Shown one piece after another: positions 36,871 through 50,784 of a stretch of 64,000 nt of DNA (positions are counted from its first letter, which is position 1; every line of letters starts with the position of its first letter). A program made the position numbers and the translations under genes. The notes under the pieces were generated by a model. The model did no database searches. It saw only the letters and a list, made by a program, of their open reading frames with translations, and was not told the DNA's origin. This DNA comes from a virus (Duplodnaviria > Caudoviricetes): the IMG/VR virus record IMGVR_UViG_2974521131_000001, positions 19,725 to 83,724 of that record; one strand, given 5' to 3'.

Positions 36871-37080
36871 ATGGCATCCCCCGAGAATCCATTCGTGCCA
36901 CTCGACCCATCGGACTACAACCTGTCGGGGTCGGCGGCTGCTGAGGCTGCCCTGGCTGGCATTTACAAGCCGCTCGTCGGCGCTGGCCCGCATCCCGACC
37001 TGACCCTGGCCGAGTTGAATCAGCGATTCGACGGCACCGGCACTGCACCTGCACACACGTTCCCGACGCCACAGAACTGA
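36871..37080 (+). CDS. Hypothetical protein
   Basis: AGGA RBS. Confidence 0.5.
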   Translation: MASPENPFVPLDPSDYNLSGSAAAEAALAGIYKPLVGAGPHPDLTLAELNQRFDGTGTAPAHTFPTPQN

Positions 37081-37105
37081 TGTTCTGAGGTCATAGGCCC
37101 TCGAA

Positions 37106-37150
37106 GAGGCCCTCGGTCAGCGAATGTGCTGGTCGGGGGCCTCTTTGGTT
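37106..37150 (+). terminator. Probable intrinsic terminator before RNA island
   Basis: GAGGCCC..GGGCCTC followed by TTTGGTT. Confidence 0.55.
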
Positions 37151-37363: not shown

Positions 37364-37435
37364 ATGGGCGTGGCTTGATAGGAAAGCAGCGGTCTCCAAA
37401 GCCGCCACACGCAGGTTCGAATCCTGCCGCCCGTG
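37364..37435 (+). tRNA. tRNA-Trp(CCA)
   Basis: Cloverleaf; GCGGT-CTCCAAA-GCCGC; GTTCGAATC. Confidence 0.85.
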
Positions 37436-37515
37436 CGTTCGTTCGGTCACGACCGAACACCGAACACCTGAATCTTGATAACTACATAGCGATTATGTTT
37501 CAAATGTTTTTCAAT

Positions 37516-37891
37516 GGGGCTGTACTGGTTTCGATTGCGAACCGAGTCCATGGAAGCGTGCCGGGAAGATACGCCCGTAACAGTTCAACCTTATAAGCGC
37601 TGCTTTTGTCGCTGCTGATTACGCCGTAGGTGCGTGATCCGGTGGGGTTCAGAGTTTTACCCGTTTTCTGAACTATCCCACCGTCATTCAAACGGGGAAC
37701 CCTCGCAGGAATTGAGCTGATACGTCGCAAGAGGCTAAATAGCGGAAGTCACCAGCAGAGTCGGAATGGAGACCGGCAACTGAGCGTGTCGGGCGTCCCA
37801 CCCCGATGCGACGGAGCGAGTGGGACTACGCACGTAGAAGAATGAGTACAGAGAACGTAAGACGCGGGTTCGATTCCCGCCAGCTCCACCA
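37516..37891 (+). ncRNA. ssrA: tmRNA; tag (A)AAFVAADYAVGA
   Basis: 5' GGGGCTG..TTTCGA, 3' GGTTCGATTCCC.CCAGCTCCACCA with G3:U; resume context ATAAGC|GCT; tag ORF 37599-37637. Confidence 0.93.
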
Positions 37892-38012
37892 GGCCTGGTC
37901 GCAGGTTCGAATCCTGCTGCGAGAGTGACGAATACATGGTCTGCAGCCATGTACGAGTTCCCGACGGTTCGCTACCGACGTGTTCGTATAGCTCAGTGGT
38001 TAGAGCAGGGCC
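37892..38012 (+). ncRNA. Circularly permuted tRNA-like RNA 1 (YrlA-like, ~60-nt insert in acceptor loop)
   Basis: Order AC3' strand, V loop, T arm, acceptor, insert, acceptor, D arm, AC5' strand; GGCCT/GGGCC pair. Confidence 0.6.
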
Positions 38013-38188
38013 GATAGACCGGTTTCCTACCTCCGTTCAAAGGGTAGGTGGTGGGATCTGGACCCTAGGCAGTCCCGATCAGTCCCCGCGAGGACAATGC
38101 GTTATAACCCCGTAGCGGTCGACGGTGAGCCGCTGGAGTGGCGACCGATTTGCCTGGCGTTCCCGACCGCCGTCATCCGTCGGGATAT

Positions 38189-38261
38189 TGGCCTGTAGCT
38201 TAATTGGTAGAGCAGCGAGCTGTTAACTCGCCAGGTGAAGGTTCGAATCCTTCCTAGCCAG
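38189..38261 (+). tRNA. tRNA-Asn(GTT)
   Basis: GCGAG-CTGTTAA-CTCGC; two acceptor mismatches. Confidence 0.8.
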
Positions 38262-38265
38262 CATT

Positions 38266-38339
38266 GCGGGAGGTCGCCGGTTCGAATCCGGCCACGGGTC
38301 AGATAGCACCCGTGTAGCTCAGTCTGGTAGAGCGCCCGC
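38266..38339 (+). ncRNA. Circularly permuted tRNA-like RNA 2 (minimal YrlA-like)
   Basis: GCGGG AGGTC GCCGG TTCGAAT CCGGC CACGGGT cagatagc ACCCGTG TA GCTC AGTCTGGTA GAGC G CCCGC. Confidence 0.78.
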
Positions 38340-38345
38340 GCCAAC

Positions 38346-39112
38346 TTTGGGGCATGGCCCATAAGTCGGGGAGACCCGGCGAAGGGGGAGAGTGACATCT
38401 CCTCGCCCGCAAGGGTTCCCCATGCAATGTCGCTGCAGTGAAGATCGTTTACGGCGGTCTTCGAGATGCGAGCTACACCTAGGTGTCCAGGGCCGTGAAC
38501 CGGTGGGACGCACCATGCCGTACGTGCGGCTGAAAGGGTTATCGAGCGAGTGTGGGTATGCAGGACAAGGTGGAAGAACAGTCTGAGGCTTGGCAGCCAA
38601 GGGCGGTCACCATGATCGTTTGTGAACTGGTCGACGGGTCAGGGAATACGGGAGAATGCGATGTACCTCGCCAGGGTGAAGCATCTGAGGTGTGAAGCAT
38701 TCTGTGCCCCAAAAGGGTTCGGAACTTCATGGGGAAGCACATCTCACGTCAAACATTTAGCTCAGCAGTAGAGCATCTCTTTGGAATAGAGACGGCGGCG
38801 GTGCGATTCCGCCAATGTAACCAAGCAAAAGTTCTTCCCCTGCCGAGAAGCAAAAGCGCCTTAATCCCCGACTGTGGAGCAGAATCGGGGCCGTCACGAG
38901 CCCGCAAGGCGACGGCGGTTTGTAGGCAAGTAGTGCAGCCATGGGACGGCCATCCTAACGGCGAAGCGAAAGTCGCAGAGTAGCTTTCGGTATGACGAGT
39001 GGTTCACGTACGAACCAGGCGTTGCACGTACTCGGGGGACCGAGTGGACAAGTCGGGAATCCATAATCCGACGAAAGCGTGTGGTCGTGGCGGTTTAGTC
39101 TCTAGCCCGCCC
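38346..39112 (+). ncRNA. Large structured ncRNA, GOLLD-like
   Basis: ~770 nt without credible ORF; 9-bp TTTGGGGCA/TGCCCCAAA stem; many GNRA hairpins; inside a tRNA array. Confidence 0.55.
38751..38823 (+). tRNA. Degenerate tRNA (anticodon GGA, short variable loop) embedded in the large ncRNA
   Basis: D arm GCTC/GAGC, TCTCT-TTGGAAT-AGAGA, T loop TGCGATT, 5-bp acceptor, CCA. Confidence 0.5.
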
Positions 39113-39118
39113 AACAAA

Positions 39119-39190
39119 CGGAATGTGCAGCCTAATGGTAAGGCGGGGAGTTCGCGACTCCCGATCCAGGTTCGAGTCCTGGCGCTCCGG
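39119..39190 (+). tRNA. tRNA with anticodon CGC (Ala), atypical
   Basis: GGGAG-TTCGCGA-CTCCC; T arm intact; lacks G3:U70. Confidence 0.55.
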
Positions 39191-39280
39191 CGCTACCCTG
39201 TGTGTGCCAGATGCACCCCCGCTGAAAACACAACTATTTCAGGTTGTTTGTTTGCCGGAAACAGCGGGCAGGGTTTCAAT

Positions 39281-39357
39281 CTCGTCGCGAATTGGCGATC
39301 ACAGCTGGCTGTAAACTAGCTCCTTCGGGTGTGCAGGTTCGACTCCTGACGGCGAGA
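39281..39357 (+). tRNA. tRNA-Tyr(GTA)
   Basis: GCTGG-CTGTAAA-CTAGC; long variable arm. Confidence 0.8.
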
Positions 39358-39472
39358 CGTAGCGGTGGTGCAACACCGCAGGGCGAGGCTGGACGGACCC
39401 GCGCACGACACAAGGGCCAGCAGACCCTCGGCTAGTGGAGAGGTGAGCCGACCGAATTGCCTTTCCAGCTAA

Positions 39473-39543
39473 TCCAGGTTGGTGTAATGGCAGCATGGCA
39501 GAATCTGACTCTGCCGATTGAGGTTCGATTCCTTGCCCTGGAT
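39473..39543 (+). tRNA. tRNA-Gln(CTG)
   Basis: GCAGA-ATCTGAC-TCTGC. Confidence 0.8.
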
Positions 39544-39634
39544 CGAGCAGGTAGATGATAATGGCGTAACCGGTGCTAATGCTGCACTCGCTGAGGATCC
39601 TCGGCGCTACCGATCAAAGGTTATACGTCCCAAT

Positions 39635-39710
39635 CAGTCTGAGGTGTAAGTGGTTGCATGAGGCGTTTGGATCGCCGGGGTTGGGAGTTCGAGTCTCTCC
39701 AGACTGACCA
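39635..39710 (+). tRNA. tRNA-Pro(TGG)
   Basis: CAGTCTG/CAGACTG acceptor, TTTGGAT loop, CCA. Confidence 0.85.
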
Positions 39711-39747
39711 TCGGGTTGTCGGTAAACACGGGTGTGGAACCGTCATT

Positions 39748-39830
39748 GGAAGGATCCGCTGAATGGTCGGCAACCGGCGTCGAATACCGGGGCTGGTGCA
39801 AGCCAGGGGGTTCGATTCCTCATCCTTCCG
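39748..39830 (+). tRNA. tRNA-Ser(CGA)
   Basis: GGAAGGA/TCCTTCC acceptor, long variable arm, G73. Confidence 0.75.
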
Positions 39831-39834
39831 CAAT

Positions 39835-39918
39835 GGAGAATGGAGCCCACCAGGTGGTGGGGACCGATTGCTAATCGGCTCGCAGCCCCGCTGTGTGGAT
39901 CGTGCCCACTCTTCTCCG
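39835..39918 (+). tRNA. tRNA-Ser(GCT), atypical T loop
   Basis: CCGA-TTGCTAA-TCGG, long variable arm, T loop ATCGTGC. Confidence 0.6.
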
Positions 39919-39919
39919 C

Positions 39920-40039
39920 GTGAACGCATACAAGTGCAGTGCATGTAAGCGCCCTGTCGGTCTGATGGTCGACGCGAAGGGCGAGCCCGAGATCTTCAAG
40001 TGCCCGAATACCGGGCGTGTGGCCACGGCCACGAAGTAG
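39920..40039 (+). CDS. Possible 39-aa Zn-ribbon microprotein
   Basis: MNAYKCSACKRPVG..FKCPNTG; high GC3 but no RBS. Confidence 0.35.
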   Translation: MNAYKCSACKRPVGLMVDAKGEPEIFKCPNTGRVATATK

Positions 40040-40108
40040 TTCCTAGGATGCGCCGTCGAGCTTCAAAATGCTCGTATAGCCGAGGCGCAGAAGAGTATCG
40101 GCTCCAAT

Positions 40109-40183
40109 CGGTTCGTAGCTCAGTTTGGCAAGAGCGCTGGCTTGAAACCCCAGAGGCCCCAGGTTCGACTCCTGGCGTTCCGG
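40109..40183 (+). tRNA. tRNA-Phe(GAA)
   Basis: TTGAAAC loop; D and T arms canonical. Confidence 0.75.
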
Positions 40184-40323
40184 CGTAAAAGGGAAACCAG
40201 ATCCGTCCGCTACTGGTGAAAAGCGGCGCAGGCCACGGAGATACATAGGCAGCCTGGGAAAATTGCCCCCGTGTAACAACTCGAAGCCGATGACCCAGTG
40301 AGGCGATAAACAACCTGGGCTAT

Positions 40324-40395
40324 TGCGCGGTAGTGAAATCGGGATCACAGGAGTTTCATACGCTTCCATTATGGGTTCGAGTCCCATCTGCGCAA
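40324..40395 (+). tRNA. tRNA-Met/Ile2(CAT)
   Basis: TGCGCGG/CTGCGCA acceptor; TTCATAC loop. Confidence 0.75.
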
Positions 40396-40475
40396 CGACG
40401 TATCAGGTTCTGCAAGGGGTAGGTAAAAGGGTCCACGCCCCAGTGGTCCGTCCTGGTACACAACGAAAGGCAAGT

Positions 40476-40676
40476 ATGACCGCGAAGCTTCGCACTGGTA
40501 TCGCCCACATCGACATCGTCCGCACGGTGAACGATCTGATCGACCAGGTCGAGGAACTGAAGGAGTTCTGTTACGCGGTGGCTGACGAGCCCGCTGAGGC
40601 CCCGAAGAAGGCCACGGCACGCAAGGCCCCGGCCAAGAAGGCTGAGGACGCCAGCGAGGCTGACAAGGGGGAGTAA
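40476..40676 (+). CDS. Small protein with Lys/Ala-rich tail inside tRNA array
   Basis: GAAAGG RBS; PKKATARKAPAKKA. Confidence 0.6.
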   Translation: MTAKLRTGIAHIDIVRTVNDLIDQVEELKEFCYAVADEPAEAPKKATARKAPAKKAEDASEADKGE

Positions 40677-40684
40677 TCCCCATT

Positions 40685-40763
40685 CCCGATGTTGAGCAGT
40701 GGAGCGCTCAATGGGCTACGAACCCATATTCGCATGCAGGTTCGAATCCTGTCATCGGGTCCA
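40685..40763 (+). tRNA. tRNA-Arg(ACG)
   Basis: ATGGG-CTACGAA-CCCAT; CCA. Confidence 0.85.
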
Positions 40764-40765
40764 TA

Positions 40766-40840
40766 CCTCTTGTAGCTCAATCGGTTAGAGCAGCGGTTTG
40801 TGAAGCCGCAGACCACGGATCGTAACCGTGCAGGGGGACC
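40766..40840 (+). tRNA. tRNA-His(GTG)
   Basis: GCGGT-TTGTGAA-GCCGC; T loop ATCGTAA; no G-1:C73. Confidence 0.75.
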
Positions 40841-40842
40841 GT

Positions 40843-40943
40843 GTTGGTGTGCCCATATCGCCCCGCGCCATGGCTAGCGGGATCATCGACGTACTTGGAA
40901 GGCAGGGGTGGCCACCCTTCGGGTTCGAATCCCGGCACCAGCC
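40843..40943 (+). ncRNA. tRNA-like RNA with expanded D loop and no anticodon loop
   Basis: GTTGGTG/CACCAGC acceptor and canonical T arm; ~40-nt insert between TGCC and GGCA; anticodon arm reduced to GGGGTGGCCACCCT. Confidence 0.55.
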
Positions 40944-40947
40944 CTAT

Positions 40948-41019
40948 GTCGAGATGACAGAGTGGCGATGTGACGGTCTGCAAAGCCGATCTACGCCGGT
41001 TCGAATCCGGCTCTCGATT
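40948..41019 (+). tRNA. tRNA-Cys(GCA)
   Basis: CTGCAAA loop, U73. Confidence 0.85.
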
Positions 41020-41031
41020 CTAGGAGAGACT

Positions 41032-41283
41032 GTGGGAGCACAACTCTCAGCAGCCGAAGCCGCGAGGATGCGAGCTGCACTCGACTGGGTGGAGAACCAC
41101 CCGGTCAGCAAGGACCGCCACGTGCAGCTGGTGGCGGCACTCGTTGACGAGATGCGTCTAGCTGAAGACACTTCGGACCTGCGTCCGTGGTTCAACCGGC
41201 TGATTCAGATCAACGACGAACTTGATAGAACTCACGGTCGGATTCCCACGGTGGATGACTGGCCGGGAGATATGGATCTGTAG
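41032..41283 (+). CDS. Hypothetical protein inside tRNA array
   Basis: AGGAG RBS; stop codon lies inside tRNA-Leu(TAG). Confidence 0.55.
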   Translation: MGAQLSAAEAARMRAALDWVENHPVSKDRHVQLVAALVDEMRLAEDTSDLRPWFNRLIQINDELDRTHGRIPTVDDWPGDMDL

Positions 41284-41347
41284 CCCAAATGGAAGAGGCA
41301 ACAGGCTTAGACCCTGTTCAGTGTGGGTTCGACTCCCTCCAGATTCA
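41274..41347 (+). tRNA. tRNA-Leu(TAG), short variable loop
   Basis: ACAGG-CTTAGAC-CCTGT. Confidence 0.8.
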
Positions 41348-41351
41348 CTCT

Positions 41352-41426
41352 GCTCGACTAGGCAAACTAGGCAAAGCCGCAGGCCTCAAAAGCCAGTGTT
41401 TGCGAGTTCGAATCTCGCGTCGAGTA
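41352..41426 (+). tRNA. tRNA-Leu(CAA), short variable loop
   Basis: CTCAAAA loop; GCTCGAC/GTCGAGT acceptor. Confidence 0.8.
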
Positions 41427-41464
41427 CAACGCTGTATTCCCGAGGCGCTATATCGGGAAGCCAT

Positions 41465-41535
41465 GGGCTCGTAGCTGAGTGGTTTAGCTCCGTCCTCTTA
41501 AGTCGGAGACGTAGGTTCGATTCCTACCGGGCTCA
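41465..41535 (+). tRNA. tRNA-Lys(CTT)
   Basis: CTCTTAA loop. Confidence 0.82.
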
Positions 41536-41536
41536 C

Positions 41537-41612
41537 TGTGATGTCGTCCAACGGTTTAGGGCACCGATCTGATACATCGGAAACCAGGGTTCAACTCCCT
41601 GCTTCACTACCA
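41537..41612 (+). tRNA. tRNA-Ile(GAT)
   Basis: CCGAT-CTGATAC-ATCGG; CCA. Confidence 0.8.
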
Positions 41613-41616
41613 CTTC

Positions 41617-41683
41617 GCGGCAGTTCCGGAAAGTGCTGGGCGTCCTAAGCCCGAGCAAGGGTGTTCGAGTCACCTCTGTCGCA
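41617..41683 (+). tRNA. tRNA-Arg(CCT), reduced D arm
   Basis: TGGGC-GTCCTAA-GCCCG. Confidence 0.6.
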
Positions 41684-41700
41684 CAACACAATTCAACATC

Positions 41701-41775
41701 GGGGTATTCATCTAGTCTGGCTCAGGATGCGACACTTCCACTGTCGTCACGAGGGTTCGAATCCTTCATACCTCA
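41701..41775 (+). tRNA. tRNA-Gly(TCC)
   Basis: CGACA-CTTCCAC-TGTCG. Confidence 0.82.
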
Positions 41776-41838
41776 CGAGGCGTCTCGCCCTCTAACGCAA
41801 AGCGGCCTAAGTCGCGATAGCCGTTGCGAGACAACTAA

Positions 41839-41910
41839 TCGGGATTAGCTCAGTGGAAGAGCGGCTGGTTTACACCCAGCGCGTGGGGAGTTCGATTCTC
41901 TCATTCCGAA
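41839..41910 (+). tRNA. tRNA-Val(TAC)
   Basis: GCTGG-TTTACAC-CCAGC. Confidence 0.85.
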
Positions 41911-41971
41911 CGTCGACCTGACGAGGTCACCGGGGACCGGGTACCCGGCTTAGCGGCAAACACCCGTCCAG

Positions 41972-42049
41972 GCTGGATTTGCTCATGTTGGCTTGAGCAC
42001 CTACCTAGTAAGTAGGAGTACGTCGGTTCGATTCCGACATCCAGCCCCA
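41972..42049 (+). tRNA. tRNA-Thr(AGT)
   Basis: CCTAC-CTAGTAA-GTAGG; CCA. Confidence 0.8.
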
Positions 42050-42050
42050 T

Positions 42051-42124
42051 GCCCTGTTCGTCTAACGGCAGGATTCCTGGGAGTTGGTCCCAGGGGATGG
42101 AGGTATCGAATCCTCCACGGGGCA
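42051..42124 (+). tRNA. tRNA-Gln(TTG)-like with extended anticodon stem
   Basis: CCTGGG-AGTTGGT-CCCAGG; 8-nt T loop; Gln-type D arm. Confidence 0.5.
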
Positions 42125-42130
42125 TCCAAT

Positions 42131-42203
42131 GGGGGTGCATGTTCCTTGGGGGCGACGGATCCTTGCAAGATCTGTGTGGTGGGTTCAATTCCCATCATCT
42201 CCA
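42131..42203 (+). tRNA. tRNA-Ala(TGC)
   Basis: CTTGCAA loop; G3:U70. Confidence 0.8.
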
Positions 42204-42326
42204 CGGCGGGTGCGGGCTGTCAGATAACCAATGCTGGCCCGCACCCGACCCAGTATGCAGATCGTAGTCTGTAAGGGTACGAAATGCATACTCACACATA
42301 ATAGGTCGCGTAGGCGACCATTTAAT

Positions 42327-42399
42327 CCCGATGTCATCTAGTGGCCTAGGATGCCGCCCTGTCGAGGCGGTCACGCGAGTTCAAATCTCGTCGTCGGGA
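42327..42399 (+). tRNA. tRNA-Asp(GTC)
   Basis: CCGCC-CTGTCGA-GGCGG. Confidence 0.85.
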
Positions 42400-42459
42400 C
42401 GGTAGTTTGCGGTGATCTAGATGGCGATGAGCGTTAGCCTCGCCATCGAAAACCGCTCT

Positions 42460-42530
42460 GGTTCATTGGTGTAATGGCAGCATCCCAGGTTCTCAACCTG
42501 TAGGCAGGGGATCGTAACCCCTATGAACTA
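42460..42530 (+). tRNA. tRNA-Glu(CTC)
   Basis: TTCTCAA loop; T loop ATCGTAA. Confidence 0.78.
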
Positions 42531-42533
42531 CGC

Positions 42534-42580
42534 AAGGCCCTCCCTCCGTCCAAGCAGTGGCGGTTGGGGGGCCTTTTTTG
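42534..42580 (+). terminator. Intrinsic terminator ending the tRNA operon
   Basis: AAGGCCCTCC..GGGGGGCCTT followed by TTTT. Confidence 0.75.
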
Positions 42581-42584
42581 TGCC

Positions 42585-42606
42585 CTGACCAGCGATTACA
42601 GGATCG
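42585..42606 (+). repeat. Extended motif CTGACCAGCGATTACAGGATCG (copy 7)
   Basis: Directly after terminator, before RtcB operon. Confidence 0.8.
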
Positions 42607-42628
42607 TGGGATTCTACTCGTTGTGAGC

Positions 42629-43057
42629 ATGAAGAAAGCATTGATCGCGATTCCCGTTGCGGCACTGGCCAGTTCGGTGCTGCTGGTGGGATGTGGTGAC
42701 ACCACCATCTCCTGCGAGTCGATGAGCAGCGTTGCGCTGCAGTCGATTGAATACCCGCTGCCCCTCAAGCCTGGTGGCGGCGGTGGTACCGGTGGCCGTG
42801 GAGGCTCGAGCGGTGGCAGCCGCAGTGGCGGTTCCTATGGTGGGAGCAAGCCGAAGCCTGCCGCACCGCGTCCTCAGCCGAAGCCTGCGAAGCCCCCGCA
42901 GTCGGGCAACACCACGATCATCAACCATCCTCCCGGTTATCGGGACCGTGGCGGATCCGATCCCATGATGCCGTTCATTGGTGGCCTGCTGGTTGGTGAC
43001 GCACTGTCCGACGGCGGCGGTGGCAACCATGGCGGCGGCAACGGCGGTCACTGCTGA
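42629..43057 (+). CDS. Gly/Pro-rich lipoprotein
   Basis: MKKALIAIP..LLVGC lipobox. Confidence 0.65.
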   Translation: MKKALIAIPVAALASSVLLVGCGDTTISCESMSSVALQSIEYPLPLKPGGGGGTGGRGGSSGGSRSGGSYGGSKPKPAAPRPQPKPAKPPQSGNTTIINHPPGYRDRGGSDPMMPFIGGLLVGDALSDGGGGNHGGGNGGHC

Positions 43058-43251
43058 TGCCCGCTCTCGGAGCCCTGGTCGTCAAGCCGTATCCCGGCCA
43101 GGAGATGTGGGTGCAGGCCCTCGCTGACGGCGACTACGAGGTCGGTGTGCAGTTCAACAAGAACCAGTACACGATGATCGAAGTCAGCCGCGAGCAGTTG
43201 GAGCAGTTCTCCACGAACATCATTGCGGTTCTGCTCGATACGGGCCTGTGA
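43057..43251 (+). CDS. Hypothetical protein
   Basis: TGATG overlap. Confidence 0.55.
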   Translation: MPALGALVVKPYPGQEMWVQALADGDYEVGVQFNKNQYTMIEVSREQLEQFSTNIIAVLLDTGL

Positions 43252-43321
43252 ACCCGCTCGTCTTCATCATCGTCCTCTTCCTGATGGCCCTCGCACTGGC
43301 CATCCTCGTGAACGGAACTAC

Positions 43322-44536
43322 ATGAGCACAACCCTTGCCCCGAAGGTCATCTCGTTCGCCAGCGAGATCGACCAGGCAACGATCGATCAGGCGAAGCAGA
43401 TCGCGTCGATGCCGTTCGTCCACCCTCACTTGGCGCTGATGCCGGATGCCCACTCGGGCAAGGGGTCTGCTGTGGGGACGGTGATCCCGACGCTGGGTGC
43501 CGTGATCCCTGCTGCGGTGGGTGTGGACATCGGCTGCGGCATGATCGCGGTGAAGACCCGCTTCACGCTGCTGGACATCGATGAGCGCCGCCTACGCCTG
43601 GACGTTCTGCGTCGTCAGATCGAGGAAGCGATCCCGCTTTCACCCGGCAACTACAACTCGACGCTGTCGCGGTTCTCGTTCACCCGCAAGAAGCACGAGG
43701 AGCTGATCCAGCTCCAGCAGACGAACGACGTGGACCTGTCTCATTCACCGAAGTGGATGGAGCAGCTGGGCTCACTCGGCGGTGGTAACCACTTCATCGA
43801 GCTGTGCCTGGATGACGAAGACAACGTGTGGCTGTTCCTGCACAGCGGTTCTCGCGGTGTGGGTAACAAGATCGCCCAGGTCCACATCAAGGCTGCGCAG
43901 GCGTACTGCGAGGAGAAGCGTCAGACGGTTCCGCAGTCACGGTTCCACCTGCCCCACAAGGATCTGGCATTCCTTGAAGAGGGCACCATCCAGTTCGACT
44001 CGTACATCAAGGAACTCGAGTGGGCGCAGCGCTTCGCGATGCTGAACCGCGCCGAGATGATGGACCGCTACGTCGAGGTGTTCGCGTGGTGGATGGGCGT
44101 GCAGGCTCAGCGAGTCGAGCTGCAGCGCGTGAACACCCACCACAACTACACCGTGCCGACCGAGATCGACGGCGAGCGTGTGTGGTTGACGCGTAAGGGC
44201 GCTGTGGACGCCACTGAGGGCAAGCTGGGCATCATCCCCGGCTCCATGGGCACCCGGTCCTACATCGTGCGCGGTAAGGGCTGCAAGGAGGGCCTGTGGT
44301 CCGCACCGCATGGTGCTGGCCGCAAGTTCTCCCGCACGAAGGCCAAGGAGCACTTCACGGTCGATGACCTGAAGGCTCAGATGCAGGGCATCGAGTGGCG
44401 CGAGGACATCGCCGAGAAGCTCGTTGACGAGATCCCCGCCTGCTACAAGGACATCGACCAGGTCATGGCCGATGCGGAACCACTGGTGGAGGTCGTGACC
44501 GGCCTGCGCCAGATCTTGAACGTGAAGGGCACGTAA
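43322..44536 (+). CDS. rtcB: RtcB RNA 3'-phosphate/5'-OH ligase
   Basis: MPDAH.G.G, GVDIGCG, GGGNHFIE, LHSGSRG, HHNY, IIPGSMG, SAPHGAGR, DE.P.CYKDI, NVKG. Confidence 0.97.
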   Translation: MSTTLAPKVISFASEIDQATIDQAKQIASMPFVHPHLALMPDAHSGKGSAVGTVIPTLGAVIPAAVGVDIGCGMIAVKTRFTLLDIDERRLRLDVLRRQIEEAIPLSPGNYNSTLSRFSFTRKKHEELIQLQQTNDVDLSHSPKWMEQLGSLGGGNHFIELCLDDEDNVWLFLHSGSRGVGNKIAQVHIKAAQAYCEEKRQTVPQSRFHLPHKDLAFLEEGTIQFDSYIKELEWAQRFAMLNRAEMMDRYVEVFAWWMGVQAQRVELQRVNTHHNYTVPTEIDGERVWLTRKGAVDATEGKLGIIPGSMGTRSYIVRGKGCKEGLWSAPHGAGRKFSRTKAKEHFTVDDLKAQMQGIEWREDIAEKLVDEIPACYKDIDQVMADAEPLVEVVTGLRQILNVKGT

Positions 44537-45043
44537 TTGACCGACCACACAGCTATCGACATCGACTTCGATCCGACCGTGCAGCGCATGACTGGTGTTG
44601 CACGACACGGCAATACGTACTTCGACGTGCCGTATGTGTCGCAGATCGAGGGCGACCTGTGGCAGGGCGGCTGCCGCGACGACCTGATCCTGCCGCGCAA
44701 CATCATGAACGTGGTGTCGCTGTACCCGTGGGAGCGGTACGAGATCCAGCATGAGGTCGACACCGAGCTGTACGTCCGCATGTACGACTCGGAGGACCAG
44801 GGCTTCGACCAGATCGAGTCGCTGGCCGAGTACGTGAACGAGCGTCTGGACTTCGGGCCGGTGCTGATCCACTGCCAGGCTGGCCTGAACCGTTCGTCTC
44901 TGCTCGCGGCGAAGGTGCTGCATCAGCGGTACGGCTGGTCGGGTGACCGGATCCTCACCCACCTGAGGATGAAGCGGTCTCCAGCAGTGTTATGCAACCG
45001 TGCATTCCAGCGTGAGGTCCAGTCATGGCCGGGGATGGACTGA
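44537..45043 (+). CDS. PTP/dual-specificity phosphatase family protein
   Basis: HCQAGLNRS (HCX5R) P-loop. Confidence 0.88.
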   Translation: MTDHTAIDIDFDPTVQRMTGVARHGNTYFDVPYVSQIEGDLWQGGCRDDLILPRNIMNVVSLYPWERYEIQHEVDTELYVRMYDSEDQGFDQIESLAEYVNERLDFGPVLIHCQAGLNRSSLLAAKVLHQRYGWSGDRILTHLRMKRSPAVLCNRAFQREVQSWPGMD

Positions 45044-45649: not shown

Positions 45650-46336
45650 ATGAGCTACTACTGGTTCAACAGCAATCCGGTCGAGATGGGTCCGCGCCAG
45701 CCCGTCGTGGACTATCTCGGCCAGATCGAGGCGACCCCGAACTTGCGCCGCGCAAGCCTGTCGAACGCGGTCCTGTTCGGTGGCCCTCTGCTGCGAAAGA
45801 TCTTGGCGTGCGCCCCGATTGTCGGCGACCATGAGCACATCTTCGTGGACACCAAGGTCTCCATGCTGATGCCTGGCTGGTGGCCCGCGATCCCCGGCTG
45901 GCACACCGACGGCGTACCGCGTGTCGATGAGGACGGGGTCAACCCACTGGGTATCGGGAAGCCATCGCTCCCCGAGCAGGTCGACCAGCACCAGGACGGC
46001 TACCGACCCCGGTACCACACCATCCACGTCGGCAACGACTGCCCGACCGAGTTCATCGACGGTCTTCTGCGTCTGCCTATCGATCACGATACGGACGAAG
46101 AGATGTACTCGGAGATGACCCGCAAGATCGACGGCTGCTCGACGCTGCGGAAGCTGAAAGCCCCCGAGGGTCAGTGGATGTCATGGGACTGGTGGAACAT
46201 CCACCAAGCCACCCAGGCCACTCAGCGCGGGTGGCGTCTACTGGTGCGGATCACGGAATCCAACCAGCCCCCAGTGGATTCGGAGTTCATCCGGCCACAG
46301 AACCAGGTCTACGTACCGAAGGAGTTTGGCTGGTGA
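45650..46336 (+). CDS. Putative 2OG-Fe(II) dioxygenase-fold protein
   Basis: HxD (GWHTDG), distal His (NIHQA), R..R (GWRLLVR). Confidence 0.6.
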   Translation: MSYYWFNSNPVEMGPRQPVVDYLGQIEATPNLRRASLSNAVLFGGPLLRKILACAPIVGDHEHIFVDTKVSMLMPGWWPAIPGWHTDGVPRVDEDGVNPLGIGKPSLPEQVDQHQDGYRPRYHTIHVGNDCPTEFIDGLLRLPIDHDTDEEMYSEMTRKIDGCSTLRKLKAPEGQWMSWDWWNIHQATQATQRGWRLLVRITESNQPPVDSEFIRPQNQVYVPKEFGW

Positions 46337-46566: not shown

Positions 46567-46850
46567 GCGCCGACACACTGACCATCACATACAAGCTGCC
46601 GCGCCAGATGTCGGCGAACGACTGGCTGTTCAGCTGCCTGCGCGAGGGTGATCACAACGGTGTCCTCGAGTGGGTGATGAACCACAACCTGTCCATCGAG
46701 ACGGTGAAGCTGGGGTACGCCGACAAGGCCCTGAACCACATGTGCCCCACGTGCGAAGCGGATCCCGGCGAACCGTGTTGGTTCCGTCCGGGTTCCGGCA
46801 TCGAGAACGGCAAGGGTTACAAGCATATGACGCGAGGGGCGATGCGATGA
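46563..46850 (+). CDS. Zn-finger hypothetical protein
   Basis: CPTC.A.PGEPC..H..R. Confidence 0.6.
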   Translation: MSADTLTITYKLPRQMSANDWLFSCLREGDHNGVLEWVMNHNLSIETVKLGYADKALNHMCPTCEADPGEPCWFRPGSGIENGKGYKHMTRGAMR

Positions 46851-47332
46851 CCCATCGAGTACTGATCACCGGCAGCCGCGACTGGACCGACCGTCACGCT
46901 GTCGGCCTGGCGCTACAGAGTGAGCTGGAGAAGCACGGCGAGATCCTCATCCTGAACGGGATGTGTGAGCGCGGCGCTGACCTGCATGCCCACGAGTACT
47001 ACCTGATGCATGGCTCGAAGTGGGTGCGGGAGAAGGAATTCCCCGCTGACTGGTCTCGGGATTGCACGAGCAGCTGCTACCACAAGCCGCGCTACAGGAA
47101 CGGTGAGCGCTACTGCCCGCTGGCTGGCCACCTGCGCAATCAGGCGATGGTCGACTTCGGTGCCGACGTGTGTCTGGCGTTCCCGCTGGAGGATTCGCGG
47201 GGCACGTACGACTGCATGAAGCGGGCGAAGAAGGCGAAGATCCCGGTGCGCAACCTCGGGTTCGGCGGTGAGCGCTGTCAGCCCCGCCTCAACTACCACT
47301 CCATGCCGCACAGGGGGTGCATTCTCCGGTGA
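46847..47332 (+). CDS. SLOG-family (YspA/DUF2493-like) protein
   Basis: RVLITGSRDW, GAD..A, FPADW, G.LRNQ.MVD.GAD..LAF, SRGT. Confidence 0.85.
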   Translation: MTHRVLITGSRDWTDRHAVGLALQSELEKHGEILILNGMCERGADLHAHEYYLMHGSKWVREKEFPADWSRDCTSSCYHKPRYRNGERYCPLAGHLRNQAMVDFGADVCLAFPLEDSRGTYDCMKRAKKAKIPVRNLGFGGERCQPRLNYHSMPHRGCILR

Positions 47333-47511
47333 GAGTCCGTTTGGAAGTCGAGACCCACTCGGGTCGCAGGATCGGGGCCTCGGTCCCCATCGCTAACGCT
47401 CTACCCAACTGGCGGATGCCCAAGCAGGACGAGTTCAACGAAGAGCGTGACCGACTGCGCCGCGCCGTCGAGCAGATCTACACCGACATTGAAAGGGAGC
47501 TGTACGGATGA
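47329..47511 (+). CDS. Hypothetical protein
   Basis: GTGA overlap. Confidence 0.5.
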   Translation: MRVRLEVETHSGRRIGASVPIANALPNWRMPKQDEFNEERDRLRRAVEQIYTDIERELYG

Positions 47512-48149
47512 GCAACGTCTGGTTTACGTCCGACTTGCATATCGGCCACAGCAAGATCGCTGGGCTACGGGCCGGTGACCGCGTGTTCCCTGCTGTCGTC
47601 GGAGCTGTCGAGGACTGGCACGACCGCATGCTCGCGAAGGGCTGGGACGAGGTCGTCGGCAAGGACGACGTGGTGTGGGTGCTGGGCGACATCTCATCCG
47701 GCACCAACGACGGCCAACGGAAGGCTCTTGCGTGGCTGAAGGAGCGCCCCGGTCGTAAGCGCCTGGTCCCCGGCAACCATGACGGCGTGCATGGACTCCA
47801 GCGCGACGGCCACAAGTGGGAGCCCGAGTACCGCGAGGTGTTCGAGCGGATCGTGATGGCTGCGAAGCTCCGCATTCCGCTGCCGGAAGGGCACCTGAGC
47901 GCCACGCTGAGCCACTTTCCGTACGACGGTGACCACACGGACCCCGACCGTCACACGACGTGGCGTCTACGGGACGAGGGACTGCCAGCCATCCATGGGC
48001 ACACGCACTCCACTGAGCGGGTGTCTCACTCGCAGCGGGGTTCCCTGCAGGTGCATGTGGGGGTGGATGCGAACTGGTTTGCGCCAGTGCCGATGTCTTA
48101 CGTGACCAACCTGATCGCGACCGTTCACGAGTGGGAGGGCAAGCTGTGA
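47508..48149 (+). CDS. Calcineurin-like metallophosphoesterase
   Basis: FTSDLHIGH, LGD, GNHD, SHFP, HGHTH, HVGVD. Confidence 0.92.
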   Translation: MSNVWFTSDLHIGHSKIAGLRAGDRVFPAVVGAVEDWHDRMLAKGWDEVVGKDDVVWVLGDISSGTNDGQRKALAWLKERPGRKRLVPGNHDGVHGLQRDGHKWEPEYREVFERIVMAAKLRIPLPEGHLSATLSHFPYDGDHTDPDRHTTWRLRDEGLPAIHGHTHSTERVSHSQRGSLQVHVGVDANWFAPVPMSYVTNLIATVHEWEGKL

Positions 48150-49159: not shown

Positions 49160-49359
49160 GCCTCGGTGGGACGGAAGAGGAGTGGGCGGCAGTACGACGC
49201 GAAGTCGCCGCCAGCCCACCCCTCAGTGACCGTCAGGTGAACCGGATCTCAGTCGTTGCTGGGATCATGCCAGTGGATCTTGATGGCGTGACCGAGGGGC
49301 AGTTTGGCCGCAGAGCGACCCGTCTGCCCGACATGCTGGATCACGATCTTGTCGCATAG
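49156..49359 (+). CDS. Candidate recombination directionality factor (phiRv1 Rv1584c-like)
   Basis: VAASPPLSDRQVNRI resembles AAAPPLTDEQRTRL as recalled for Rv1584c; convergent with and overlapping int. Confidence 0.55.
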   Translation: MSLGGTEEEWAAVRREVAASPPLSDRQVNRISVVAGIMPVDLDGVTEGQFGRRATRLPDMLDHDLVA

Positions 49360-50703
49360 CGACTCGATGATCGCACGCTTACGCTCGAGATCCAGTCCCA
49401 GCCAAACCTTTTCAAGATCGTCATGACCGAGCAGCCCGTCGAACACGCGAGATCGTGTAAGGCGGGCTAGCTTGGCATCGATCTCTTCCAGCTTGGCGTT
49501 CACCCGGTCGGTGGCGTCCTTCACCTGAGCCGGTGTGAGGGTGCCGTCGGCCAGGGCCTCACCGAACGATGCCTTGCGAGCGCGTAGAGCTTCAGCCTCA
49601 GCGTGAAGACCCTTGGCCTGCTCCGCGTCGACCTGGGTGCCGACAATCCACTTGCGCTGCTCCAGCTTCGCCACCATGGACATCTCGACATACTTGTCGA
49701 CCTTCTTACGCACACGGGTAACACCGTGCTTGCAGACCTCGTAGCGCTTGCACTTGTAGATGGGCTCACCGTTGGAGTTCTTCCCGGCAGCCATCTTGTT
49801 GCCGCAGGCACCGCAGCGCACGATCCCCGACAGGAGGGTCGACCGTACACGTGGACCCTTCTTGCCGGTGTTCTTCTGGTCGAGCACCGCACAGGCTGCC
49901 TCCCAGGTTTCCCGATCAACGATGGGCTCCCAGGTGCCTTCGCCCACGATCTCGTCCCTGAAGGTCAGCAGGCCCGCATTGCGGGGGCTTCGCAGGATCT
50001 TCCCGACGACCGACCCGACGAACTGGTTGCCACGCGTGGTGCGCAGACCGTCCTCGTTCCACTTCTTCGCGATGGAGTAGAGGGTGCAGCCAGCGAGCAC
50101 GTCGGCGTACGCCTGCCGGATCGCAGCGGCCTCCTCGGGCACGATCTGCGGGTCTCTGGGGTCATGGGTCCAGCCGAACGCGGGAGCGCCCAGGCGACGG
50201 CCACTGTCGGCGATCTGCTCGTAGGCTCGCATCTGTCGCGCCGTCCTTACCTCGCCCTCGTTCTCCGAGACAGCGGCAAGGATCTTCGCTGTCATCCGAC
50301 CGGCGTCGGTGGTGAGATCGATCAGGCCAGTCTGGCAGGTCTCGATGGGGATCCGCTTGCCTGTCTTATTAACACCCTGGATCAGATCGATCAGGGGGAG
50401 TAGATCCTTCATCTTTCGGTACAGCCGGTCGCTGCGCCACGTGATGATGCTGTCGATCCGGCCATCGCGGATGTCCTCGCTCAGCGCATCGAAGCCTTCG
50501 CGCTTGACGTTCTCCTTGGTGGCGCTGCGGTCGTTGTCGATGTACTCGACGGGAACCCAGCCCAGACGCTCAGCCAGCGCCAGGCAGTCTTCGCGCTGGC
50601 GATCGATGCCCAGCTCCTTGTCGGTGGACATGCGCAGGTAGACACCCACCCGCAGGGCCTCCTGCTGCGGGGTGTCGAGGTGTCGCTCGAGGGTCGCTGT
50701 CAT
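49249..50703 (-). CDS. int: Large serine integrase (phiRv1 Rv1586c-like)
   Basis: VYLRMS catalytic Ser, RQREDC, DRL.R, recombinase domain, CGACG..C Zn ribbon, coiled coil. Confidence 0.95.
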   Translation of the reverse strand: MTATLERHLDTPQQEALRVGVYLRMSTDKELGIDRQREDCLALAERLGWVPVEYIDNDRSATKENVKREGFDALSEDIRDGRIDSIITWRSDRLYRKMKDLLPLIDLIQGVNKTGKRIPIETCQTGLIDLTTDAGRMTAKILAAVSENEGEVRTARQMRAYEQIADSGRRLGAPAFGWTHDPRDPQIVPEEAAAIRQAYADVLAGCTLYSIAKKWNEDGLRTTRGNQFVGSVVGKILRSPRNAGLLTFRDEIVGEGTWEPIVDRETWEAACAVLDQKNTGKKGPRVRSTLLSGIVRCGACGNKMAAGKNSNGEPIYKCKRYEVCKHGVTRVRKKVDKYVEMSMVAKLEQRKWIVGTQVDAEQAKGLHAEAEALRARKASFGEALADGTLTPAQVKDATDRVNAKLEEIDAKLARLTRSRVFDGLLGHDDLEKVWLGLDLERKRAIIESLCDKIVIQHVGQTGRSAAKLPLGHAIKIHWHDPSND

Positions 50704-50784
50704 AGGTGCCATCTTACCAGGTTGAACGGTGTTTTTGAAGGGCACCGAAACAACATAGATAGACAAACTAAGTAATTTGAGACA

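Follow-up and report, generated by a model that had tools for sequence, protein, structure and literature searches.

The region at positions 37364–44536 is the known ~5-kb tRNA array of Cluster M mycobacteriophages, followed by a gene for an RtcB RNA ligase; only its three conserved, anticodon-less tRNA look-alikes, carried by a genome without Ro, appear not to have been described before. The window (64,000 nucleotides) comprises bases 19725–83724 of the 83,724-bp genome of a subcluster M2 (Reyvirus) mycobacteriophage, which shares gene order and 89–91% nucleotide identity with the Reyvirus phages Estes, Aziz and MrMagoo. The array itself (37364–42531, plus strand) spans ~5.2 kb; its RNA genes all point the same way, and no long ORF within it is convincing. 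It contains 21 canonical and five non-canonical tRNAs, a tmRNA, a GOLLD RNA and the three look-alikes, here termed mimics A, B and C; three small ORFs also lie within it (39920–40039, 40476–40676 and 41032–41283). An array of 5 kb with 21 tRNAs and a tmRNA is described as a hallmark of Cluster M (PMC7953290; PMC5966550), and the tRNA arrays of this cluster are credited to Pope et al. 2014 (PMC5966550, PMC7953290).

ARAGORN identified 21 tRNAs on the plus strand of the array, which together cover all 20 amino acids (Leu twice), and 20 of them exceed the Rfam gathering score. The first gene is tRNA-Trp(cca) (37364–37436; Rfam tRNA, 54.9 bits), tRNA-Asn(gtt) is found at 38189–38262 (ARAGORN and Rfam), and the remaining array after GOLLD (39119–42531; ARAGORN, Rfam and annotation in relatives) holds canonical tRNAs for Ala, Tyr, Gln, Pro, Phe, Met, Arg, His, Cys, Leu (two), Lys, Ile, Gly, Val, Thr, Asp and Glu. 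Relaxed thresholds yielded five further, non-canonical genes on the same strand: Ser(cga) (39748–39831) and Ser(gct) (39835–39919), both with a long variable arm, a 68-nt Arg(cct)-like gene (41617–41684), Gln(ttg) (42050–42128) and Ala(tgc) (42131–42204). Several of these carry a tRNA annotation in relatives. The total of 26 agrees with an earlier note on this DNA, which had counted about 25 tRNAs for all 20 amino acids. The sole canonical Ser call (gga, 38751–38822) is a 72-nt tRNA-like insert within GOLLD that has no long variable arm, so Ser coverage rests on the two non-canonical Ser genes. Most of the phage tRNAs have no encoded CCA.

Codon coverage was assessed over 102 phage ORFs chosen by a GC3 rule, without a gene finder. 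Under strict wobble the canonical genes read 68% of phage codons, rising to 75% when the non-canonical tRNAs are added and to ~97% if a U34 tRNA is allowed to decode a whole four-codon box; GAA, CGG, TCA, AAA, AGA, ATA and TTA remain unread. Four-codon boxes are mostly served by one U34 (or A34) tRNA each, and two-codon boxes by G34 or C34 tRNAs that match the GC-rich codons used by the phage. Phage-preferred codons are matched by the anticodons (CAG 92%, AAG 97%, GAG 80%, TTC 94%). Coverage hardly changes along the genome (95–98% in its left, middle and right parts), and thus nothing singles out late genes. These counts show the phage tRNAs to be a minimal, nearly self-sufficient decoding set.

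The fit of the anticodons to preferred GC-rich codons is also what would be expected if the array merely supplemented supply, giving faster translation or a match to hosts with other tRNA pools without any role in defence, with RtcB as a general RNA-maintenance enzyme acquired from mycobacteria. Consistent with this, the phage RtcB is 69–76% identical to array-independent RtcB genes in several slow-growing mycobacteria, and the phage is temperate, as indicated by a serine integrase gene at 49249–50766. Those mycobacterial RtcB genes have one nearby tRNA, on the opposite strand, and otherwise lie outside tRNA arrays. However, a tRNA for each amino acid, even for Trp, Met and Cys, exceeds the needs of codon-bias correction, and a tmRNA together with an RNA ligase specific for nuclease-type ends suggests translation that is damaged rather than slow. 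We therefore consider a supplement of supply unlikely, and favour an array that sustains phage translation.

Both large RNAs that had been proposed from the sequence, the tmRNA and a GOLLD-like RNA, score above their Rfam gathering thresholds. The tmRNA (37516–37891, plus strand; ARAGORN) encodes the tag AAFVAADYAVGA and its own CCA end, scores 100.8 bits against RF00023 (gathering 47), and occupies an identical position in all six relatives scanned. The GOLLD RNA spans ~762 nt (38347–39108, plus strand; Rfam RF02032 and alignment). Its conserved 3' domain (38685–39108) matches RF02032 at model positions 1–416 with 182.5 bits (gathering 150), and its variable 5' domain (38347–38684) forms 83 pairs, 26 of them with compensatory changes among six phages. 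GOLLD is found at the matching position in the six Rfam-scanned relatives; Estes was aligned over the first 167 bases only. Upstream, a conserved structured spacer (38018–38188, plus strand; alignment) gives a weak wcaG-like Rfam match (28.4 bits) and contains a covarying hairpin, GGUUUCC...GUGGUGG, at 38018–38062. GOLLD RNAs form a known family, and cryo-EM of one member reveals an RNA cage. Morgado et al. reportedly described GOLLD in Mycobacterium tRNA arrays (2020, RNA Biol 17:1001). The phage RNA differs in nothing essential from known GOLLD: it exceeds the gathering threshold over the entire model and lies inside a tRNA array with a tRNA-like insert, as it does in mycobacteria (Behra et al. 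2019, PMC6582537). That insert, a pseudo-tRNA (38751–38822), takes two forms among relatives, a full cloverleaf and one without an acceptor stem, and is largely deleted in Nanosmite.

All three of the anticodon-less mimics that the earlier note had described are present. Mimic A (37890–38017, plus strand; model R1, 41.9 bits, E 1.6e-10) is a circularly permuted tRNA-like module that begins at the CCA of the tmRNA and runs through a closing stem, a T arm, a long branched acceptor-like arm and a D arm; 13 of its 38 pairs show compensatory changes (RNAalifold, four phages). It was found in Nanosmite, Reindeer and PegLeg, and alignment did not find it in Aziz or MrMagoo. A model scan, made without alignment, gave a partial R1 match in Bongo as in PegLeg, and none in Estes. 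Mimic B (38264–38342, plus strand; fold, YrlA alignment and covariation) is a tRNA body that is circularly permuted and lacks an anticodon loop, in the order closing stem (5–6 bp), AGGUC variable loop, T arm, 7-bp acceptor hairpin, UA and D arm, and its minimum-free-energy fold is a four-way junction. Compensatory changes affect 8 of its 22 pairs among four distinct sequences, a value reached in none of 500 shuffles. It is present in Estes, Aziz, MrMagoo and Reindeer, and was not found in PegLeg or Bongo, where GOLLD lies directly 3' of tRNA-Asn, nor in M-like prophage arrays that bear RtcB.

Mimic C (40841–40947, plus strand), by comparison, has tRNA-like elements in normal order: a 7-bp acceptor stem and a T arm, the latter located by motif scan, enclose a strongly conserved, non-tRNA core with the invariant CAUAUCGCCCCGCGCCAUGG and the palindrome GUGGCCAC. 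No anticodon arm is recognisable in it, and ARAGORN makes no tRNA call there even at relaxed thresholds. The acceptor and T stems covary in an alignment with Aziz, Nanosmite, Estes and MrMagoo; the mimic was not found in Reindeer or Bongo, in which the His and Cys genes adjoin. The compensatory changes in these sequence alignments argue that the three look-alikes are real, selected RNAs. Their patchy occurrence among close relatives shows that the array can do without any one of them. Permuted modules of a similar kind occur in other phage tRNA arrays, on contigs where RtcB was not detected.

Mimics A and B share with YrlA (RF02553) the succession of T arm, acceptor-like hairpin and D arm, with a closing stem where the anticodon stem would lie, and could be Y-RNA relatives that act on host Ro60 (Rsr)/PNPase, or on a binder of the tRNA-like domain of host YrlA, and shield structured phage RNAs from degradation instead of absorbing anticodon nucleases. 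Mimic B indeed matches the tRNA-like part of the Rfam YrlA model (43.6 bits, E 1.8e-8), although only at positions 23–85 and under the gathering score of 69. A YrlA-like RNA has been shown in M. smegmatis, such RNAs adjoin Ro60 genes (Chen et al. 2014, PMC4201824), and some mycobacteriophages, such as ET08, encode a Ro60 orthologue, in some cases with YrlA (PMC4201824). The Ro-binding helix (model positions 1–22 and 86–114), however, is missing, and the 5' side of mimic B starts 1–3 nt past tRNA-Asn and leaves no room for it. Moreover, the absence of Ro/Rsr that had been reported for the window extends to the whole 83.7-kb genome, in which no TROVE/Ro gene was found. Action through Ro60 or a YrlA binder therefore seems to us distinctly unlikely.

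The positions of the mimics also bear on whether they are landmarks of precursor processing or architecture (for RNase P, RNase Z or modification enzymes) that fix the ends of tmRNA and GOLLD, or leftovers of HNH-driven tRNA gene shuffling without function in trans. Mimic A begins exactly at the tmRNA CCA, mimic B occupies the stretch between tRNA-Asn and the start of the GOLLD 5' domain, PegLeg and Bongo join GOLLD straight to tRNA-Asn where B is lacking, and HNH endonuclease genes lie within or beside these arrays (PMC5966550). Yet compensatory changes preserve all four helices in A and B, unlike in decay products; the RNase P site of a permuted module would lie inside the acceptor loop and not at a boundary; and relatives without A or B still make tmRNA and GOLLD. 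We hold such an origin or role to be doubtful. Most likely, the look-alikes would offer some tRNA-binding factor of the host the elbow and body of a tRNA while being neither decodable nor cleavable at an anticodon. A decoy role for them is purely inferred.

The RNA array is closed by an intrinsic-terminator-like, GC-rich hairpin followed by UUUUUU (42535–42579, plus strand; fold energy −29.9 kcal/mol, z-score −2.35), which lies between the RNA genes and the protein genes. RtcB therefore need not be co-expressed with the array. The ligase (43322–44536, plus strand; 404 aa; Pfam PF01139, E 1.7e-107; phrog_1075), aligned to P. horikoshii RtcB, keeps the catalytic D and C of GxDIxCG, the H of GNHF, and the H residues of HxGSRG, HN and HGAGR. 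Four more plus-strand genes follow within 4 kb: a dual-specificity (cysteine) phosphatase with the HCX5R motif HCQAGLNRS (44537–45043; Pfam DSPc, E 2.7e-10; phrog_10650), a 228-aa 2OG/Fe(II)-oxygenase-like protein (45650–46336), a SLOG-family protein (YAcAr; 46670–47332; Pfam PF10686, E 3.2e-11), annotated as 'DprA-like' in Estes, and a calcineurin-like metallophosphoesterase (47508–48149; Pfam PF00149, E 4e-10; phrog_547). The 2OG-like protein has no Pfam match; 40 homologues all share its H85, D87, H185 and R196, its AlphaFold2 model reaches a pLDDT of 93.9, and its top Foldseek PDB matches are nearly all 2OG oxygenases (E from 2e-4), with TM-scores of only 0.3–0.43. All the protein genes listed in the earlier note are thus present, although their order differs slightly from the one listed there.

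Their proximity and shared strand could suggest an RNA end-healing and repair module with RtcB. Cysteine phosphatases and metallophosphoesterases do include RNA end-processing enzymes. RtcB, however, joins 3'-phosphate or 2',3'-cyclic-phosphate ends directly, so it needs no phosphatase. The phosphatase lies 3' of RtcB in subcluster M2 only, with one extra gene between the two in Estes, Aziz and MrMagoo, and other genes take its place in Bongo, PegLeg, Reindeer and Nanosmite. Structurally, the 2OG-like protein comes closest to hydroxylases of small molecules and amino acids, with low TM-scores. Phage phosphoesterases that partner RNA ligases have been discussed, but YAcAr SLOG proteins are predicted to make signalling nucleotides from NAD+ and not to repair RNA (Iyer et al. 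2021, PMC7824862). We consider such a module, which the earlier note implied, very unlikely; nothing observed here links the four neighbouring genes to RNA repair.

The six Rfam-scanned relatives and an M-like M. palauense prophage keep the order Trp, tmRNA, Asn, GOLLD, further tRNAs and RtcB. The array of an M-like prophage in Mycobacterium sp. AZCC_0083 has tRNAs, tmRNA and RtcB, with no GOLLD above the gathering score. Because the phosphatase stands beside RtcB only in M2 and the look-alikes vary between relatives, the region is a mosaic and not the one integrated system that had been proposed. The case for integration is further weakened in that RtcB-bearing M-like prophage arrays lack mimic B and permuted modules occur on contigs without detectable RtcB. 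What survives of the proposed layering is replacement and repair, which the decoding set and the intact RtcB fit, with integration weakened by the hairpin between array and proteins.

Gene order matches the Cluster M array of Bongo, PegLeg and Rey (Pope et al. 2014, J Virol 88:2461), the 'G1' array type (Morgado & Vicente 2018, PMC5966550). At the array level there is no difference: both span 5 kb and have at least 21 tRNAs, a tmRNA and a ~430-nt structured RNA (GOLLD), with an RtcB-like ligase further downstream, and Rey is the Cluster M founder and namesake of Reyvirus, the genus of the closest relatives. The abstract of the Pope study is said to name the tmRNA, the RtcB-like ligase, and host tRNA degradation or inadequacy. 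The Salmonella RNA repair operon pairs RtcB with RtcA, whereas RtcA, like SmpB and a CCA-adding enzyme, was not found in the phage genome. The logic of own tRNAs plus a ligase for cleaved ones is shared with phage counter-measures to tRNA-targeting defences, such as T4 Pnkp/Rnl1 against PrrC and the tRNAs that jumbo phages combine with an RtcB or Rnl ligase (Iyer et al. 2021, PMC7824862), although this phage is an 84-kb temperate siphovirus with RtcB instead of Pnkp with Rnl1. The array and the ideas of replacement and repair are thus already published for Cluster M and large phages. The three mimics and the covarying GOLLD 5' domain are absent from the relatives' annotations and from the literature searched, which lay outside Pope et al. 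2014, and permuted tRNA modules without Ro may be new.

Taken together, we think it probable that this is the array of an M2 (Rey-type) Cluster M phage plus a separate protein block starting near RtcB, and that the array sustains phage translation. To our knowledge, no cognate host nuclease has been described for the RtcB and tRNA set of Cluster M phages, and we know of no anticodon nuclease that the isolation host, M. smegmatis mc2155, uses against them. It counts against this reading that host tRNAs are still needed for a quarter to a third of codons when strict wobble applies. Transcription of the array would yield one or a few long precursors, which the host's RNase P and RNase Z would process and its CCA-adding enzyme would provide with CCA ends. 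In lytic growth the array would sustain phage translation when host tRNAs are limiting, depleted or cleaved; tmRNA with host SmpB would release ribosomes stalled on broken or tRNA-starved messages, and RtcB would rejoin tRNAs cut to 2',3'-cyclic-phosphate and 5'-OH ends. Since all components are present and RtcB keeps its catalytic residues, a role in maintaining translation under tRNA depletion or cleavage is reasonable.

The sequence surrounding the RNA array (37364-42531, + strand) identifies the phage group to which it belongs. Over an 8-kb query, nucleotide identity is 89-91% across 77-82% of the query for Estes, Aziz, MrMagoo and GenevaB15, which are subcluster M2 mycobacteriophages of the genus Reyvirus, and ~82% across 28-39% of the query for other Cluster M phages, including Bongo, PegLeg and Reindeer. 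Gene order in the window is the same as in the Cluster M relatives, and the defining layout of a Cluster M array is present, with 20 or more tRNA genes in one orientation within ~5 kb, a tmRNA, and RtcB downstream. This array is the G1-type array already recognised in Cluster M; taken as a whole, the island is not new and is a modest finding.

The 21 tRNAs and the tmRNA identified by ARAGORN all occupy the + strand of 37364-42531, and 20 of these tRNAs were confirmed by Rfam. A T-arm motif scan revealed six extra T arms outside the called genes, and relaxed ARAGORN settings returned five non-canonical tRNAs: Ser(cga), Ser(gct), a 68-nt Arg(cct)-like gene, Gln(ttg) and Ala(tgc). All of these except Ser(gct) carry one of the six extra T arms, and several non-canonical genes are annotated in relatives. 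The resulting total of 26 tRNA genes (21 canonical and five non-canonical) agrees with the roughly 25 counted in an earlier note made from the sequence alone. That note also held that all 20 amino acids are represented; the set is indeed complete, but its sole canonical "Ser" call is a 72-nt insert within the GOLLD RNA and has no long variable arm. Bacterial seryl-tRNA synthetase needs a long variable arm, which leaves genuine Ser decoding to the long-armed Ser(cga) and Ser(gct). The tmRNA was found by both ARAGORN and Rfam (RF00023; 100.8 bits versus a gathering score of 47), as expected from the same note, and includes a tRNA-like domain and a 12-residue tag frame. Most of the phage tRNAs lack an encoded CCA, and neither SmpB nor a CCA-adding enzyme was found in the phage genome, suggesting that the system depends on host processing and host SmpB.

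The decoding capacity of the set was assessed using 102 phage ORFs, chosen by a GC3 rule, whose codons were checked against the phage tRNA anticodons. With strict wobble, the canonical genes can read 68% of codons, a value that increases to 75% when the non-canonical genes are included and to 97% if U34 tRNAs decode entire four-codon boxes. Four-codon boxes are mainly served by a single U34 or A34 tRNA each, and two-codon boxes by G34 or C34 tRNAs matching the GC-ending codons. This layout is a minimal decoding set, and as such it fits a stand-alone translation supply better than plain codon-bias correction. Together with the tmRNA and an intact RtcB, a stand-alone tRNA set would prepare the phage for failure of the host tRNA pool. 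Such arrays have reportedly been proposed, in an abstract by Pope and colleagues, to compensate for the degradation or inadequacy of host tRNAs. Other papers credit the Cluster M arrays to Pope et al. 2014 (PMC5966550, PMC7953290), and an account of RNA repair by Iyer et al. 2021 (PMC7824862) covers phage tRNAs that accompany an RtcB or Rnl ligase, as well as phosphoesterases and the pairing of TROVE with a tRNA-like partner. Published work already contains the "replace and repair" reading.

RtcB is encoded at 43322-44536 on the + strand and, in line with the earlier note, contains a full-length Pfam domain (PF01139, E 1.7e-107, profile positions 1-426). In an alignment to P. horikoshii RtcB, the Asp, Cys and His metal ligands are kept, as is the His that accepts GMP, and the active site is predicted to be intact. 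The phage protein is 69-76% identical to RtcB from slow-growing mycobacteria (M. asiaticum, M. persicum, M. gastri, M. intermedium and M. innocens; loci L127-L133), in which the gene lies outside any tRNA array, save for one nearby tRNA on the opposite strand. This ~70% identity to array-free mycobacterial RtcB suggests that RtcB has been exchanged between phage and host. RtcB is also shared with the RtcR-regulated repair operon of Salmonella, where it is combined with RtcA, Rsr and Y RNAs, whereas a search of the phage genome returned no RtcA, and Rsr is likewise absent from it.

The additional proteins listed in the earlier note (an HCX5R phosphatase, a metallophosphoesterase, a SLOG protein and a 2OG-like protein) were all recovered downstream of RtcB. 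The cysteine phosphatase, with the motif HCQAGLNRS, directly follows RtcB. The 2OG-like gene (45650-46336) encodes 228 residues with invariant H85, D87, H185 and R196, candidates for the HxD...H metal triad and the 2-oxoglutarate Arg of these enzymes, and it is followed by a YAcAr SLOG protein and then the metallophosphoesterase, both assigned using Pfam. An AlphaFold model of the 2OG-like protein built with 40 homologues has a pLDDT of 94, versus 36 for a single-sequence model. 2OG oxygenases make up nearly all of its best PDB matches, although with TM-scores of just 0.3-0.43, and no Pfam match was obtained; "2OG-like" is a fair, if unproven, label for the protein. The family comprises 235 matches at E ≤0.001 and has no Pfam model of its own. 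Named matches come from mycobacteriophages, Gordonia phages, Mycobacteroides, Mycolicibacterium and Mycobacterium, including at least one named prophage, and the remaining matches are mostly unnamed metagenome sequences.

The GOLLD-like RNA proposed in the earlier note matches the Rfam model RF02032 over its full length (38685-39108, model positions 1-416) at 182.5 bits, above the gathering score of 150. Matches of 182 to 216 bits were obtained in six relatives. Of two M-like prophage arrays, that of M. palauense has GOLLD, and that of Mycobacterium sp. AZCC_0083 gave no match above the gathering score. The 340 nt located 5' of the Rfam match (38347-38684) form a closed, conserved multi-helix domain in which 26 of 83 predicted pairs are compensatory across six phages. 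This covarying 5' domain indicates that GOLLD is ~762 nt long, an extent that agrees with published descriptions in which the 5' region varies and the 3' region is conserved. Small "hypothetical protein" CDSs are annotated within the 5' domain in relatives (Estes gp105, Aziz gp105, Reindeer gp95 and PegLeg gp94), and these are probably not genes. The tRNA-like insert of GOLLD occurs in two forms across Cluster M and is mostly deleted in Nanosmite. The equivalent insert in a mycobacterial GOLLD has been termed a pseudo-tRNA, and its expression was undetected (Behra et al., PMC6582537). The GOLLD env-38 RNA has been observed by cryo-EM to form a homo-oligomeric RNA cage.

Folding revealed a GC-rich hairpin followed by six U residues at 42535-42579, which was overlooked, owing to its long loop, by a consensus promoter and terminator scan that otherwise yielded nothing useful. 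This hairpin closes the array, suggesting that the RNA genes form one unit and that RtcB belongs to the next. Between the hairpin and RtcB lie a gene for a lipobox protein and two small ORFs. The lipobox gene (42632-43057) is the first one past the array; its product (phrog_5101, function unknown) has a signal peptide with the lipobox LLVGC as well as a Gly-rich stretch. At the other end, tRNA-Trp is separated from the last upstream ORF, which ends at 37080, by a stretch containing an 18-nt inverted repeat (37104-37145) that is 83% complementary and has a 6-nt loop. Thus, hairpins flank the RNA array at both ends. A GTCAACC direct repeat upstream of tRNA-Trp was also considered, and it is no more frequent elsewhere in the window than expected by chance.

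Several smaller elements were seen inside the array. A 39-residue ORF at 39920-40039 contains a zinc-ribbon-like CxxC...CP motif, and Estes gp111 is likewise located within the array. A hairpin at 38018-38062 (flanks GGUUUCC / GUGGUGG), within the spacer 38018-38188, is conserved with compensatory changes in all aligned Cluster M phages, even those without the adjacent tRNA look-alike designated mimic A, and it weakly matches the wcaG RNA motif (28.4 bits versus a gathering score of 42). In Aziz (L002:5363-5399) and MrMagoo (L003:5234-5269), the tRNA-Gly/tRNA-Val spacer contains the abiF RNA motif (RF03085; 42.9 and 38.4 bits, respectively, versus a gathering score of 37). The motif is missing from the window, where the corresponding spacer (41777-41838) is unrelated sequence. 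Carried by a phage, a motif that takes its name from the abiF gene could serve in counter-defence.

All three anticodon-less tRNA mimics reported in the earlier note are present, and each has compensatory changes. Mimic B (38264-38342, + strand) begins 1-3 nt after tRNA-Asn and has a predicted four-way-junction fold with its parts in permuted order: a closing stem of 5-6 bp at the anticodon-stem position, an AGGUC variable loop, the T arm, an acceptor stem of 7 bp with an 8-nt closing loop, UA, and the D arm. It is present at the same site in Estes, Aziz, MrMagoo and Reindeer. Even with only four distinct sequences, 8 of its 22 pairs are changed on both sides, which no shuffle attains, and the pairing is lost when partner columns are slid. 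Mimic A (37890-38017, + strand) starts at the tmRNA CCA and is matched at 41.9 bits by R1, a permuted-module model built from mimic B. It has the part order of mimic B, but its acceptor-like arm is long and branched, and 13 of its 38 predicted pairs are compensatory across four phages. R1 also matched elsewhere in the window at 14-24 bits (40730-40799, 42010-42085, 41390-41499 and others), and these matches span the boundary of two adjacent tRNAs rather than marking modules.

Mimic C (40841-40947, + strand) has its parts in the normal tRNA order; its acceptor stem and T arm covary, and it has no recognisable anticodon arm. Its core is strongly conserved and unlike that of a tRNA, and it contains the invariant palindrome GUGGCCAC, which could fold into a short hairpin or mediate dimer contact of one RNA with another. 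The flanks of this palindrome covary (G...C or C...G). The covariation observed in A, B and C indicates that all three are real RNAs under selection. None of them is universal in Cluster M; mimic A, for example, is lost in Aziz and MrMagoo, and no R1 match was obtained in Estes.

The permuted T arm, acceptor-like hairpin and D arm of mimic B resemble the tRNA-like module of the YrlA RNAs. A YrlA RNA is expected to exceed the Rfam gathering score, to have a Ro-binding helix, and to be accompanied by a Ro gene. However, mimic B scores 43.6 bits against the YrlA model (RF02553), versus a gathering score of 69, and mimic A is not reported by this model. The match of mimic B covers only the tRNA-like module (model positions 23-85), and positions 1-22 and 86-114, whose 5' and 3' ends would form the Ro-binding helix, are unmatched; the short gap of 1-3 nt to tRNA-Asn likewise speaks against such a helix. 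Finally, no Ro60/TROVE gene is located near the mimics or elsewhere in the phage genome: PF05731 had no match across the complete 83.7 kb, although control genomes were matched, and neither TROVE nor vWA was detected in the 10 large ORFs (at least 330 aa) of the window that were scanned, three of which match no family. The absence of Ro/Rsr noted earlier for the window thus extends to the whole genome. The mimics resemble the YrlA tRNA-like domain but fail three of the four defining features, so YrlA membership was rejected.

Similar modules were sought by a pattern scan of viral contigs, which gave 113 matches, Cluster M loci included; most of these are tandem tRNAs. Seven matches outside Cluster M passed a complementarity filter, one of which (L062) is a tandem Thr-Thr tRNA pair. 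The others are permuted, anticodon-less modules of the same design on the unrelated uncultured phage contigs L045 (2864-2941), L086 (994-1075), L106, L114, L017 and L089, where a hand calculation from the scan counts gives a chance expectation of ~0.1 such matches among the 113. On contigs scanned with ARAGORN or Rfam, the modules lie in or beside tRNA genes, except that no tRNAs were found next to those of L017 and L089; the Rfam YrlA scores of the modules (36-48 bits) are under the gathering score. On the five contigs tested, including L062, RtcB was not found, and TROVE gave marginal matches in two and was otherwise absent, most contigs being incomplete. Together with the Ro-less Cluster M phage, these modules suggest that the mimic is tied neither to RtcB nor, at least in Cluster M, to Ro.

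The earlier note had interpreted the region as a layered, integrated replace/decoy/repair counter-defence. The tRNA set, tmRNA and intact RtcB are consistent with replacement and repair, and tRNAs, tmRNA and RtcB form a core in all relatives examined. However, the parts are mosaic: the phosphatase follows RtcB only in subcluster M2, and mimic B is missing from the RtcB-bearing arrays of the M-like prophages in M. palauense and Mycobacterium sp. AZCC_0083. Thus, the observation is confirmed and its interpretation is partly supported, with the region less integrated than claimed.

The conserved, Ro-less tRNA look-alikes are the one part that could be new, and no description of mimics A-C was found in the papers examined. 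It is conceivable, although we consider it rather unlikely, that they represent an undescribed class of Ro-independent, anticodon-less mimics in phage tRNA arrays that act in trans as decoys or competitive ligands of host factors. Candidate factors that would recognise the tRNA body include tRNA-targeting toxins, RNase P or Z, modification enzymes, and a host YrlA partner. If this is true, the Cluster M array would be a "replace plus decoy" counter-defence, testable in a culturable phage and host, and if the mimics prove to be decoys or regulators, the Y-RNA idea would extend beyond Ro60. The region is a textbook case of a phage with its own translation kit. As the phage is grown on M. smegmatis and can be engineered, it offers a good test bed for complete tRNA sets, the role of GOLLD, and tRNA repair by RtcB during infection, and the Ro-less tRNA mimics are the part that deserves experiment.
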